Shown: positions 5,296 to 34,816 of the stretch, piece after piece
Position numbering within the stretch: position 1 is the stretch's first letter
Layout of the letters: every line of letters begins with the position of its first letter
Assembly (NCBI RefSeq): GCF_048403405.1
Contig: NZ_CP183129.1
Direction: 5' to 3' (one strand)
DNA: 64,000 nucleotides
Origin: Escherichia coli
GTDB lineage: Bacteria; Pseudomonadota; Gammaproteobacteria; Enterobacterales; Enterobacteriaceae
The notes under the pieces: generated by a model
The model's input: only the letters and a program-made list of their open reading frames with translations
The model's database searches: none
Told to the model about the DNA's origin: nothing
Translations under genes and position numbers: made by a program

Positions 5296-6276
5296 ATGCT
5301 GACACTTGCCCGCCAACAACAGCGACAAAATATTCGCTGGTTATTATGCCTGTCAGTTTTGATGCTGCTGGCGCTTCTCTTAAGCCTTTGCGCCGGCGAA
5401 CAATGGATCTCGCCAGGTGACTGGTTTACTCCTCGTGGCGAACTGTTCGTCTGGCAAATTCGCCTGCCACGTACGCTGGCTGTATTGCTGGTTGGTGCGG
5501 CGCTGGCTATATCCGGCGCTGTAATGCAGGCGTTGTTTGAAAATCCTCTGGCAGAACCTGGACTACTTGGCGTCTCTAACGGCGCAGGCGTAGGGCTTAT
5601 CGCCGCGGTATTGCTTGGGCAAGGGCAACTCCCCAACTGGGCACTAGGGCTGTGTGCGATTGCTGGCGCGCTTATCATCACTTTAATACTCTTACGTTTC
5701 GCCCGTCGTCATCTTTCGACCAGTCGGTTATTGCTGGCTGGCGTTGCATTAGGGATTATCTGTAGCGCACTAATGACGTGGGCTATCTACTTTTCCACCT
5801 CTGTTGATTTACGTCAGCTGATGTACTGGATGATGGGCGGTTTTGGCGGCGTAGACTGGCGGCAAAGCTGGCTGATGCTGGCATTGATCCCCGTGTTGTT
5901 GTGGATCTGTTGTCAGTCCAGACCGATGAATATGTTAGCACTTGGCGAGATCTCGGCGCGGCAACTGGGTTTACCCCTGTGGTTCTGGCGCAATGTGCTG
6001 GTGGCAGCGACCGGCTGGATGGTTGGCGTCAGTGTGGCGCTGGCGGGTGCTATCGGCTTTATTGGTCTGGTGATCCCCCATATTCTCCGGTTATGTGGTT
6101 TAACCGATCATCGCGTATTACTTCCCGGCTGCGCGCTGGCAGGGGCGAGCGCATTGCTGCTGGCTGATGTTGTAGCGCGCCTGGCATTAGCTGCCGCAGA
6201 GCTGCCTATTGGCGTGGTCACCGCAACGTTGGGTGCGCCGGTGTTTATCTGGTTATTGTTAAAAGCAGGACGTTAG
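5296..6276 (+). CDS. btuC: Vitamin B12 ABC transporter permease
   Basis: 326 aa polytopic membrane protein beginning [29 protein letters not shown]; followed by btuE and btuD. Confidence 0.93.
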
Positions 6277-7716: not shown

Positions 7717-8181
7717 ATGCGTTTCTGCCTTATTTTGATCACAGCACTGTTTCTGGCCGGGTGTAGCCACCATAAAGCACCGCCGCCAAATGCCAGACTT
7801 TCTGATTCGATTACCGTTATTGCCGGTTTGAACGACCAGCTACAGAGCTGGCATGGCACGCCGTATCGTTATGGTGGCATGACGCGGCGCGGTGTGGACT
7901 GTTCGGGGTTTGTGGTTGTGACGATGCGCGATCGTTTCGATTTGCAGCTGCCCCGAGAAACTAAAGAACAAGCCTCTATCGGCACGCAAATTGATAAAGA
8001 CGAGTTGCTGCCAGGTGACGTGGTCTTTTTCAAAACGGGCTCCGGACAAAATGGTTTGCATGTAGGTATTTACGATACCAACAACCAATTTATCCACGCC
8101 TCTACCAGCAAGGGAGTGATGCGTTCCTCACTTGATAATGTCTATTGGCAGAAAAATTTCTGGCAGGCGAGACGAATCTAG
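7717..8181 (+). CDS. nlpC: NlpC/P60-family lipoprotein (peptidoglycan endopeptidase family)
   Basis: 154 aa; lipoprotein signal with lipobox LAGC; P60 Cys-peptidase motif DCSGFV. Confidence 0.9.
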   Translation: MRFCLILITALFLAGCSHHKAPPPNARLSDSITVIAGLNDQLQSWHGTPYRYGGMTRRGVDCSGFVVVTMRDRFDLQLPRETKEQASIGTQIDKDELLPGDVVFFKTGSGQNGLHVGIYDTNNQFIHASTSKGVMRSSLDNVYWQKNFWQARRI

Positions 8182-29476: not shown

Positions 29477-29832
29477 TTAACAAAGGCGCTCCAGATCGTG
29501 TGCATATAATTCAGCGGCTACCGATTGATAGATCTTCCAGTCAATAAAATTGCCATCAGGGTAGACTTGTTGAAACGCGGTTAAGTCGGGGAAAAAACGC
29601 ATGGTGTTGTTGCCGATGCGGTTATTTATTTTCTCTATGATGGCATGAAGATGTTTTTTCTTTGCTGACGCATAGCCAACAGTTGCTCGACTACACGATC
29701 AGGAATGGCGTATTTGCCATTTTCCCACTGACGCCAGCTTTCACTGTCACCGGTCTGGGCAATCCAGGTCGCGCATTCATCAATAGTCATGGCAAAAATA
29801 TGGCGGAGTGCCTGGAGTTCATAAGCGTTCAT
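29477..29832 (-). pseudogene. ydiL: ydiL (DUF1870-family protein), apparently frameshifted in this sequence
   Basis: Translation from the ATG at 29832 (MNAYELQALRHIFAMTIDEC...) hits a stop after 74 codons; restoring one base in the T6 run at 29653..29658 gives an uninterrupted 118-aa ORF ending at 29477, the length I recall for K-12 YdiL. Confidence 0.65.
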
Positions 29833-29971
29833 CGTGTAATGGCTGCATGAAATAAACAATAAAATATAAATAACATTATCAGCCTGCTGACGGCTTGAAG
29901 AGAGTCACAGTATCTTGTGCAACATTATTGGAAAGCGTGAGGGGCGAGGTAGCGAAGCGGAAAAATGTTAA

Positions 29972-30075
29972 AAAAAAGCCCATCGTGGGAGATGGGCAAA
30001 GACTACACACAGCAATTCGTTGTTTCACTCAGGGGATTTCCATGCTTATAAATCAATATGTTGATTTATAACCGT
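29972..30075 (-). ncRNA. rprA: RprA small regulatory RNA (rpoS translational activator)
   Basis: The minus strand reads ACGGTTATAAATCAACATATTGATTTATAAGCATGGAAATCCCCTGAGTGAAACAACGAATTGCTGTGTGTAGTCTTTGCCCATCTCCCACGATGGGCTTTTTTT, matching the RprA sequence I recall, with an intrinsic terminator at its 3' end. Confidence 0.85.
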
Positions 30076-30260: not shown

Positions 30261-31373
30261 TTACTTATTCGGTTTCTCGATTTCGCCAAGTTCTTCGAGA
30301 ACTTCTTCCGGTTGGTCAGTCGGCGGTGGGACTTCTTCCACCCACGCGGCAAAAAGACGCCAGGAAACGGCTAACAGAACCGGACCAATAAACAGGCCGA
30401 TCATCCCGAAAGCAATCAAACCACCAATAACGCCAGAGAGAATCAGGATCAGCGGTAAATCGGCACCCATGCGAATTAACATTGGGCGGATGACGTTATC
30501 CAGCGTGCCAACCACACCGCTCCACACTAACAATACCGTTCCCCAGGTGGTATCGCCAGTCCAGTAGAGCCAGATAATCGCCGGAATCAGTACCGGCAAC
30601 GGTCCAAGCTGGACAAGGCAGGAGAGGATCATTAACACCGTGAGCAAAGTTGCATAAGGTACGCCGGATACGGCGAGGCCGATACCGCCAAGCACTGCCT
30701 GTACTAACGCTGTCACCACAACACCCAGCGCCACCGCGCGGATAGCTTGTGCCGCCAGCAGCACGGCGGCATCTCCACGAACGCCTGCCAGACGGGTTGC
30801 AAAATGGCGAATGCCTTGCGCCACTTGTTCACCGCGCCAGTACAGCAGGGCGCTGAAGAGAAGCATCAGCGCACAATGCACCATAAAGCGCCCGATATGC
30901 GCCGCCTGCCCAACGAACCAGGTGGTGGTGGTGCCAATATAAGGACGGACTTTTGCCATGATCGCCGTCCCCCCCATATCCAGCAAGTTGTGCCAGCCTG
31001 CATACAGCTTCGCGCCAATCACCGGAATGGTATTAAGCCACGCCAGATCGGGTAACGTCATGTCACCGCTGGAAATGGCTTTAATTAGCGGGCCGCTGCC
31101 GTCGACGATACTGTTAACCAGCAAGGCAATAGGGATGATAAACACCATCACTAATAACAGCGTCATCACCAGAACGGCGAGAGACCGGCGACCAAACATG
31201 ATCTTTTGCAAACGTAACAATACCGGCCAGGTGGCGATAACCACCGTACCAGCCCATGCAAAGCCGAGAATAAAGGGTTGTACAATCCACAGACATGCCA
31301 CAATCATGATGGCTAAAAAGAGCACCGAAAGCAGAATTTGTGCGACATTCCTGGGCTGACGAACATTTACCAT
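30261..31373 (-). CDS. ydiK: AI-2E/PerM-family inner membrane transporter
   Basis: 370 aa polytopic membrane protein beginning MVNVRQPRNVAQILLSVLFLAIMIVACLWIVQPF. Confidence 0.88.
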   Translation of the reverse strand: MVNVRQPRNVAQILLSVLFLAIMIVACLWIVQPFILGFAWAGTVVIATWPVLLRLQKIMFGRRSLAVLVMTLLLVMVFIIPIALLVNSIVDGSGPLIKAISSGDMTLPDLAWLNTIPVIGAKLYAGWHNLLDMGGTAIMAKVRPYIGTTTTWFVGQAAHIGRFMVHCALMLLFSALLYWRGEQVAQGIRHFATRLAGVRGDAAVLLAAQAIRAVALGVVVTALVQAVLGGIGLAVSGVPYATLLTVLMILSCLVQLGPLPVLIPAIIWLYWTGDTTWGTVLLVWSGVVGTLDNVIRPMLIRMGADLPLILILSGVIGGLIAFGMIGLFIGPVLLAVSWRLFAAWVEEVPPPTDQPEEVLEELGEIEKPNK

Positions 31374-31761: not shown

Positions 31762-34700
31762 ATGATTCCACAGATTTCCCAGGCACCCGGCGTCGTTCAA
31801 CTGGTGCTTAATTTTTTGCAAGAGCTGGAGCAACAGGGGTTTACCGGAGATACGGCGACAAGTTATGCCGTTCGTCTGACAATGTCGACCGACAACAGTA
31901 TTTACCAACTTCTCCCCGATGCGGTGGTATTTCCGCGTTCAACCGCAGATGTGGCGCTGATCGCCCGTCTTGCGGCGCAGGAACGCTATTCATCGCTGAT
32001 CTTTACCCCCCGCGGCGGCGGCACCGGCACTAACGGTCAGGCGCTCAACCAGGGGATTATTGTTGATATGTCCCGCCATATGAACCGCATCATCGAAATT
32101 AACCCTGAAGAGGGCTGGGTGCGCGTTGAGGCCGGGGTGATAAAAGATCAACTCAATCAGTACCTGAAACCGTTCGGCTACTTTTTTGCGCCGGAACTTT
32201 CGACCAGCAACCGGGCAACGCTCGGTGGGATGATCAATACCGATGCATCCGGTCAGGGATCGCTGGTCTATGGCAAAACGTCAGATCACGTACTTGGCGT
32301 ACGCGCGGTGTTGTTGGGGGGCGATATTCTCGATACGCAACCTTTACCCGTCGAACTGGCAGAAACGCTGGGTAAAACCAATACCGCAATCGGGCGAATT
32401 TATAACACGGTTTATCAACGTTGCCGTCAGCAACGCCAGTTAATCATCGACAACTTCCCCAAACTTAACCGCTTTCTTACCGGTTACGATCTGCGTCATG
32501 TCTTTAACGATGAGATGACCGAGTTCGACCTGACGCGCATTCTGACGGGTTCAGAAGGGACGCTGGCCTTTATTACCGAAGCGCGGCTGGATATTACGCC
32601 CTTGCCTAAAGTGCGCCGTCTGGTGAACGTCAAATATGACTCTTTTGACTCCGCGCTGCGTAACGCGTCGTTTATGGTTGAGGCGCGGGCGCTTTCGGTA
32701 GAGACGGTAGACTCAAAAGTGCTGAATCTGGCGCGGGAAGATATTGTCTGGCATTCCGTCAGCGAGTTGATTACCGATGTGCCTGACAAAGAAATGCTCG
32801 GGCTGAACATTGTGGAATTTGCTGGTGATGATGAGGCGCTGATTGACGAGCGAGTAAATGCACTCTGTGCGCGGCTGGATGAACTTATCGCCAGTCAGCA
32901 AGCAGGTGTGATCGGCTGGCAGGTATGCAGTGAGCTGGCAGGTGTTGAGCGTATTTATGCGATGCGCAAAAAAGCTGTCGGCCTGCTCGGTAATGCCAAA
33001 GGAGCAGCCAAGCCAATTCCGTTTGCTGAGGATACCTGCGTACCGCCGGAACATCTGGCCGATTATATTGCTGAATTTCGCGCGCTGCTCGACAGCCACG
33101 GCTTAAGCTACGGTATGTTCGGTCACGTCGACGCAGGTGTCTTGCACGTCCGTCCTGCGCTGGATATGTGCGATCCGCAACGAGATTTTGATGAAGCAAA
33201 TCTCTGATGATGTAGTGGCGCTTACCGCGAAATACGGTGGTTTGTTGTGGGGCGAACACGGCAAAGGTTTTCGCGCCGAATACAGCCCGGCGTTTTTTGG
33301 TGAGGAACTTTTTGCAGAACTGCGTAAAGTGAAAGCGGCATTTGACCCGCATAACCGACTCAACCCTGGGAAGATTTGCCCGCCAGAAGGTCTTGATGCG
33401 CCGATGATGAAAGTGGACGCGGTGAAGCGCGGTACATTCGATCGACAGATCCCCATTGCGGTACGCCAGCAGTGGCGTGGTGCAATGGAGTGTAACGGCA
33501 ACGGTTTATGCTTCAACTTTGATGCTCGTAGTCCGATGTGTCCGTCGATGAAGATCACCCAGAACCGGATTCATTCACCGAAAGGGCGCGCTACGCTGGT
33601 ACGTGAATGGCTGCGTTTGTTGGCGGATCGCGGCGTTGACCCACTCAAACTGGAACAAGAACTGCCTGAATCCGGCGTCAGTTTGCGGACGTTAATTGCC
33701 CGCACGCGCAATAGCTGGCATGCGAATAAAGGCGAATATGACTTCTCACACGAAGTCAAAGAGTCGATGTCGGGCTGTCTGGCCTGTAAAGCGTGTTCGA
33801 CTCAGTGCCCCATCAAAATTGATGTGCCGGAGTTTCGCTCTCGTTTCCTGCAACTCTATCACACCCGTTATTTACGCCCGCTGCGCGACCACCTCGTCGC
33901 TACGGTTGAGAGTTACGCACCGCTGATGGCACGCGCGCCGAAAACCTTTAACTTCTTCATTAACCAGCCGCTGGTGCGCAAACTCTCGGAAAAACATATC
34001 GGCATGGTTGATTTGCCGCTGCTGTCGGTCCCCTCGCTACAACAACAAATGGTGGGGCATCGCTCGGCAAACATGACGCTGGAACAGCTTGAAGCTCTCA
34101 ATGCAGAGCAGAAAGCGCGCACGGTGCTGGTGGTGCAGGACCCCTTTACCAGCTATTACGATGCGCAAGTTGTGGCGGATTTTGTCCGTCTGGTCGAAAA
34201 ATTAGGTTTCCAGCCTGTGTTACTGCCATTTTCGCCAAATGGCAAAGCCCAGCATATCAAAGGCTTTCTTAATCGTTTTGCGAAGACGGCGAAAAAGACG
34301 GCGGATTTCCTCAACCGTATGGCGAAGCTGGGGATGCCAATGGTGGGCGTCGATCCGGCGCTGGTACTTTGTTATCGCGATGAATATAAACTGGCACTGG
34401 GCGAAGAACGTGGCGAGTTTAACGTCTTACTGGCGAATGAATGGCTGGCAAGCGCACTTGAGTCACAGCCAGTGGCTACAGTCAGCGGTGAATCATGGTA
34501 TTTATTTGGTCACTGTACCGAAGTTACCGCCTTGCCGGGCGCGCCAGCACAATGGGCCGCGATATTTGCCCGTTTTGGCGCGAAACTGGAAAATGTCAGC
34601 GTGGGTTGCTGCGGCATGGCAGGGACTTACGGACATGAAGCGAAAAACCATAAAAATTCGCTCGGGATCTATGAGTTATCCTGGCATCAGGCGATGCAGC

Positions 34701-34816
34701 GACTGCCGCGTAATCGCTGTCTGGCGACCGGATATTCCTGCCGTAGCCAGGTAAAACGAGTTGAAGGCACGGGGGTACGCCATCCTGTGCAGGCTTTACT
34801 GGAGATTATTAAATGA
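31762..34816 (+). pseudogene. ydiJ: ydiJ (FAD-linked oxidoreductase with C-terminal Cys-rich domain), reading frame interrupted
   Basis: The gene is split into ORF 31762..33207 (481 aa, FAD-binding PCMH-type domain, ending ...GHVDAGVLHVRPALDMCDPQRDFDEANL) and ORF 33137..34816 (559 aa, in the +1 frame, continuing ...EILMKQISDDVVALTAKYGGLLWGEHGKG); together they make the roughly 1018-aa protein I recall for K-12 YdiJ. Confidence 0.7.

Follow-up and report, generated by a model that had tools for sequence, protein, structure and literature searches.

A one-base contraction in the ydiL gene of an Escherichia coli genome: a probable consensus error at a recurrently shortened homopolymer

Background

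YdiL and the Aca2 repressors share an architecture in which a long helix, alpha4, lies between an N-terminal HTH domain and a C-terminal domain, and in which the C-terminal helix alpha6 packs on helix alpha1 of the partner and accounts for the larger part of the contact between protomers in the dimer (Usher et al. 2021, PMC8434428). According to the same study, the function of ydiL is not known, and the gene is silent in 22 Salmonella conditions and non-essential. The nearest solved structures are those of YdiL from Salmonella (PDB: 1S4K) and of several Aca2 anti-CRISPR-associated repressors. The Aca2 repressor of phage ZF40 (PDB: 7B5J, 7VJO, 8W35) belongs to the same Pfam family, PF08965, and is matched over both domains (phmmer E about 3e-14). 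In contrast to Aca2, ydiL is a stand-alone core-genome gene with no adjacent acr gene, no prophage and no known target, and in the genome described here its reading frame is also truncated.

Broken copies of ydiL are found elsewhere in public data, e.g. the 171-nt ydiL fragment listed for APEC O1 in Table S3 of Touchon et al. 2009. The question that such copies raise is whether a given frameshift belongs to the organism or to its assembly. In Enterobacteriaceae, the errors that remain in Oxford Nanopore (ONT) consensus sequences fall chiefly in Dcm motifs, followed by wrong homopolymer lengths (Wick, Judd & Holt 2019, PMC6591954). Here we describe a ydiL frame of this kind, compare it with its closest relatives and with several thousand complete genomes, and weigh the explanations for its disruption.

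Results

Disruption of the ydiL reading frame

The sequence analysed, henceforth the window, is a stretch of 64,000 nucleotides from contig NZ_CP183129.1 of the E. coli assembly GCF_048403405.1. Its ydiL gene occupies the same locus as the intact E. coli YdiL (WP_001308680.1, 118 aa; K-12 ydiL) and the Salmonella YdiL of known structure, and the gene order ydiK - rprA - ydiL - ydiM is that of strains MS 69-1, 7/2 and K-12. The features of the disrupted gene are as follows:

29477-29832, minus strand: disrupted ydiL (Aca2/YdiL family), 356 nt here versus 357 nt in intact relatives, assigned by synteny and Pfam PF08965
29654-29659: run of six T (coding strand A6) versus seven in relatives; the frame breaks here, past codon 59 (AAA)
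29635-29832, minus strand: truncated ydiL frame, 59 native residues plus NIFMPS and then TAG; the HTH half only, PF08965 positions 1-60 of 118
29477-29653, minus strand: out-of-frame remainder of ydiL, codons 61-118 plus TAA, identical to the intact MS 69-1 gene

The start codon is the ATG at 29832-29830 on the minus strand, and across the break the gene reads ...CGT CAG CAA AGA AAA AAC ATC TTC ATG CCA TCA TAG, with the premature TAG (29637-29635) six codons past the break. Translation from the ATG yields 65 codons, namely 59 native YdiL residues followed by NIFMPS. The original prediction, that ydiL is cut by a frameshift in a T6 homopolymer, agrees with the comparison to relatives, in which the run is one base longer; it had placed the run at 29653-29658 and counted 74 codons from the ATG at 29832, and both figures need correction, as position 29653 is the G/C base next to the run, while the 74-aa translation belongs to a mechanical ORF that begins at an upstream TTG (29859). 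The anticipated effect of a single added base is reproduced exactly: one T inserted into the run generates a 357-nt ORF of 118 codons with a TAA at 29479-29477, ending as foreseen at 29477, and the protein it encodes is the same as WP_001308680.1, the YdiL found in the nearest genomes. The sequence has the make-up expected of a homopolymer-slippage pseudogene, i.e. an A7 to A6 contraction relative to intact orthologs and an early stop. In MS 69-1 the ydiL DNA is identical bar this one base; residues 1-59 are the same, and the rest is present in the window out of frame.

The restored protein matches the PF08965 profile (Aca2_YdiL) from position 1 to 118 with 202.8 bits, and the truncated 65-aa product matches positions 1-60 only, with 94.4 bits (gathering cut-off 23.8 bits). 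The two-domain protomer, comprising the HTH and the C-terminal dimerisation domain, is not encoded in one frame in the window, since the break follows residue 59; compared with intact YdiL, the 65-aa product is devoid of the C-terminal half. According to the alignment, the frameshift would fall inside the region of helix alpha4, and the lost part would correspond to the second half of this helix and the C-terminal dimerisation domain (domain roles from Usher et al. 2021, PMC8434428). Judged from its sequence, a real 65-aa product would retain the HTH, lose the dimerisation half and probably be inactive as a dimeric DNA-binding protein.

On the same strand, 135 nt upstream of the ydiL start, lies the gene for the small RNA RprA (29968-30075, minus strand; Rfam RF00034, 118.5 bits). 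It is identical to its counterpart in MS 69-1, and its terminator takes in an 8-nt run (29970-29977).

Length of the tract in other genomes

A 461-nt ydiL query found matches in 5,416 of 5,426 complete E. coli genomes, the best of which carry one extra A and are otherwise identical, so that the A7 to A6 change is the sole difference between the window and intact ydiL in 461 bp. With an 81-nt probe centred on the run, a perfect match was obtained in a single genome out of 5,409, that of ETEC strain B7A; about 5,400 other complete genomes, including K-12 MG1655, show one difference from the probe, and in every genome inspected at base level this difference is the extra base, although the probe does not separate genomes that have A6 together with a flanking SNP. 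The comparison with MG1655 proposed at the outset thus gives seven bases in the run, versus six in the window. The A7 tract is found in E. albertii too. In Salmonella YdiL the residues at this position are RRQRR, and the tract is not conserved beyond Escherichia.

Within the clone to which the window belongs, six near-identical complete genomes are each 3 bases longer than the window over 24.9 kb, and the four of them that we aligned over 50 kb all have T7.

The contracted allele is, on the other hand, already present in public databases. In all, 211 contigs are on record with exactly the 65-aa product, and 14 with the product of a +1 change (A8). Ten sampled A6 loci represent at least eight haplotypes; five of these loci (L006, L007, L008, L011 and L012) come from clean assemblies with intact neighbouring genes, and some of the contigs occur in several samples. 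The ydiL gene of B7A (NZ_CP035812.1), annotated by NCBI as "frameshifted", exhibits the same A7 to A6 contraction in the same tract, but it has a different ydiL allele upstream of the run. The entries EHN85047.1, EHP65543.1 (from TA124) and VED35507.1 (annotated as "YdiL protein") result from the same contraction and have the same 65-aa product. The haplotypes of B7A and of these three entries are unrelated to the window, and the cases are either independent events or independent miscalls. It had been suggested that a reference YdiL truly ending in ...RKNIFMPS would speak against a frameshift; the 65-aa entries that end in this way are themselves products of the same frameshift.

One of the clean A6 loci, L007, differs from the window by 1 SNP across the 6.6 kb from ydiK to aroD, and diverges in ydiJ. 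This divergence, together with the A7 tract of the clone-mate MS 69-1, does not indicate that the window and L007 share A6 by descent. In B7A (locus L002, segments 1-937 and 1366-1721) the neighbouring ydiK, about 430 bp upstream of ydiL, is also annotated as frameshifted.

Private differences between the window and its clone

The window belongs to a tight clone that includes strains MS 69-1, TUM14771, 4621, TUM1226, OX030728 and GN02461, which are about 100% identical to it over 24.9 kb. Over the complete 64 kb it differs from MS 69-1 at four sequence sites and by one IS200C insertion, which is carried by MS 69-1. In addition to the contraction in ydiL, the sequence differences are:

8020, plus strand: C to G in a CCTGG Dcm motif, where it replaces the inner methylated C and gives NlpC L102V; private, in 0 of 5,410 genomes
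31349, plus strand: C to T directly 5' of a CCTGG Dcm motif, giving YdiK D9N; in 0 of 5,423 complete genomes and in two Logan contigs of another lineage
33181-33182, plus strand: junction of a 2-bp deletion (AA of CAACAAGAG) in ydiJ; private, in 0 of 5,212 genomes

The counts were obtained with 81-nt probes for the window alleles in complete genomes, by which the ydiL allele was found in 1 of 5,409. Aligned over 50 kb with four sister genomes, the window is alone in having each of the four changes. The sisters differ from each other at 4 SNP sites and by no indel in these 50 kb, and each has 0-1 private SNP. The two indels occur in the window alone, and each of its four changes affects a protein, none being silent. 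Both of the frameshifts that were mentioned in the original prediction are present, the second being the 2-bp deletion between 33181 and 33182; as regards their recurrence in close relatives, neither was found in the aligned sister genomes. The deletion splits ydiJ (31762-34816, plus strand; D-2-hydroxyglutarate dehydrogenase, 1018 aa) after residue 473. Neither NlpC L102V nor the 481-aa YdiJ fragment has an exact protein match on record.

The substitution in ydiK was also seen outside the clone, in two Logan contigs from an unrelated lineage (nearest strain 118UI). In one of them (L016, Logan ERR13116100) position 6025 corresponds to window position 31349; ydiL and ydiJ are intact in this contig, which is free of indels when compared with the complete genome closest to it. 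The recurrence of D9N could be due to a real polymorphism or mutational hotspot, or to a recurring systematic miscall.

Several other features of this region were recorded in passing. A GATC Dam site lies 7 nt upstream of the ydiJ deletion. The IS200C copy of MS 69-1 (about 0.7 kb, with tnpA), located between rplT and pheM at the equivalent of window position about 1238 and missing from the window, is the only structural difference between the two in 64 kb. In strain 4621 (L018, NZ_CP103479.1) the segment 33959-35230 is a sufD pseudogene, with an internal stop resulting from one private SNP (window-equivalent 38997).

Distribution of the differences relative to error-prone sites

The differences that distinguish the window from near-identical genomes are concentrated in homopolymers and in motifs subject to methylation. 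The two substitutions (2 of 2) each affect a Dcm CCWGG motif of the reference or the base beside it; 1.7% of positions qualify, and the probability of this arrangement by chance is about 3e-4. One of the two indels, that in ydiL, falls in a 7-nt run. A single stretch of 3.5 kb within the 64 kb holds three of the four differences (P about 0.03). The window thus shares with the error classes described for nanopore consensus sequences (Wick et al. 2019) the CCWGG substitutions and one homopolymer deletion. It departs from the nanopore profile in that the density of differences is very low (4 in 64 kb) and long runs are otherwise correct: among the 29 further runs of 7 or more bases, three of which have 8 nt, none differs from MS 69-1, so any error process must be rare, with no general homopolymer problem.

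We considered 5-methylcytosine deamination as the cause of the substitutions at Dcm sites and rejected it, since neither is the C-to-T change at the methylated inner C that would be expected from real deamination. A mismatch-repair mutator, as the source of a real long branch, was likewise set aside: a C-to-G, a C-to-T, a -1 change in a run and a -2 change outside a run do not compose a clean MMR spectrum, and such numbers are too small to test.

The same ydiL contraction also occurs in error-ridden long-read assemblies. Compared with the near-identical strain 7/2, the A6 assemblies L010 and L014 differ almost only by 1-nt homopolymer deletions, among them the A7 to A6 change in ydiL. The assembly L009 has deletions of this kind as well when compared with L012, a clean relative that also carries A6. 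In all three of these independent assemblies (L009, L010 and L014) the same homopolymers are each one base shorter, among them the G6 in ccgccgccgcGGGGGG, the G7 in tgctggatatGGGGGGG and the T8 in cacgatgggcTTTTTTTT; together they mark several places in the ydiJ-ydiF region at which long-read assemblies are recurrently under-called.

Discussion

Error or mutation

We regard a consensus or assembly error as the probable cause of the ydiL frameshift, and put the probability of this reading at roughly two in three. It is favoured by the substitutions at Dcm motifs, the clustering of the differences, the occurrence of the same change in error-ridden long-read assemblies, and the private nature of the changes. 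A genuine A7 tract would have been read as A6 in an assembly in which nanopore-type errors persist at a low rate, and the strain would carry an intact 118-aa ydiL like the rest of the clone; we infer both the platform and the presence of seven bases in the reads. The clustering of three differences would fit a locally poorly supported stretch. Several observations nevertheless count against an error. The 2-bp deletion in ydiJ lies outside any long run and is no classic platform error, YdiK D9N is found in a Logan contig of another lineage that is free of indel errors, and A6 occurs in clean assemblies on several unrelated haplotypes with intact neighbours. From the latter it follows that natural strains do acquire the mutation and tolerate it.

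The contraction may instead be a very recent private mutation, in which replication slippage turned A7 into A6 and made ydiL a pseudogene with a 65-aa product, most likely an inactive regulator. We consider this the less likely reading, though a plausible one. The tract is a natural slippage site, contracted and expanded products are both on record, and the spread of A6 over at least eight haplotypes includes clean assemblies and contigs from several samples. The gene is dispensable (Usher et al. 2021, PMC8434428), pseudogenes do arise in the clone, as exemplified by sufD of strain 4621, and every other long run in the window is correct. A recent event would leave the out-of-frame 3' part unchanged from the intact gene, which is what is seen, but an undamaged downstream frame is just as compatible with an artefact. 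The main difficulty for a genuine mutation is the company it keeps: two private frameshifting indels and two private substitutions at Dcm motifs in 64 kb set the window apart from the sister genomes, and their clustering, along with the lack of any silent change, has an unselected look. The original prediction had named homopolymer length changes both as a classic sequencing or assembly error and as a real route to gene inactivation, and both halves of that statement hold for this tract.

Recoding or phase variation

The programmed -1 frameshift site of dnaX is the heptamer A_AAA_AAG. In the A6 form of ydiL, the zero frame AG A_AAA_AAC likewise contains a canonical X_XXY_YYZ slippery heptamer, and, as in programmed sites of the dnaX type, the downstream frame encodes the remainder of the protein. 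A -1 slip, ribosomal or transcriptional, at this site would restore a near-full-length YdiL (K60N) with the native C-terminus, and the tract could then act as a leaky or reversible switch of an Aca2-like regulator. The retention of A7 in E. coli and E. albertii and the presence of both contracted and expanded alleles in public data are in line with such a role, but we find it hardly credible. The two-frame layout was seen in no relative: about 5,400 complete genomes are one difference away from the probe, those inspected have a single ORF, and the tract is not conserved beyond Escherichia (RRQRR in Salmonella). The predicted fold has no compact stem-loop 5-9 nt downstream; the run itself forms only weak pairs with a U6 some way off (z = -2.0), and the sequence has no SD-like stimulator upstream. 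For contingency loci, or for transcriptional slippage to be efficient, seven bases are a short run. Phase variation would call for ON and OFF lengths that are both common in lineages; A6 was found in 1 of 5,409 complete genomes, and the examined clone-mates are all A7. Unlike dnaX-type sites, ydiL thus has neither a conserved two-ORF layout nor a convincing stimulatory element and is no member of that class. We accordingly rejected programmed frameshifting at ydiL, for which the heptamer is present while stimulator and conservation are both missing.

A related and more speculative scenario, to which we assign only a very small chance, is that the contraction is real and that the Escherichia-specific A7 tract repeatedly serves, through mutation, to switch off an Aca2-like HTH regulator encoded on the chromosome. 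The regulator would have been lost independently in many lineages, with the heptamer allowing a trickle of -1 frameshifted, near-full-length protein.

Implications

The biological weight of the finding is small, as the case is that of an ordinary homopolymer frameshift either way. Long-read E. coli assemblies recurrently under-call the A7 tract of ydiL. If the frameshift in the window is an artefact, the lesson is one of quality control: positions 8020, 29654-29659, 31349 and 33181/2 would be suspect, and the ydiL and ydiJ "pseudogenes", as well as NlpC L102V and YdiK D9N, should not be interpreted before the reads are checked. If it is real, it would add one more pseudogene of a dispensable gene, leaving this strain with a regulator of unknown function that is devoid of its dimerisation domain.
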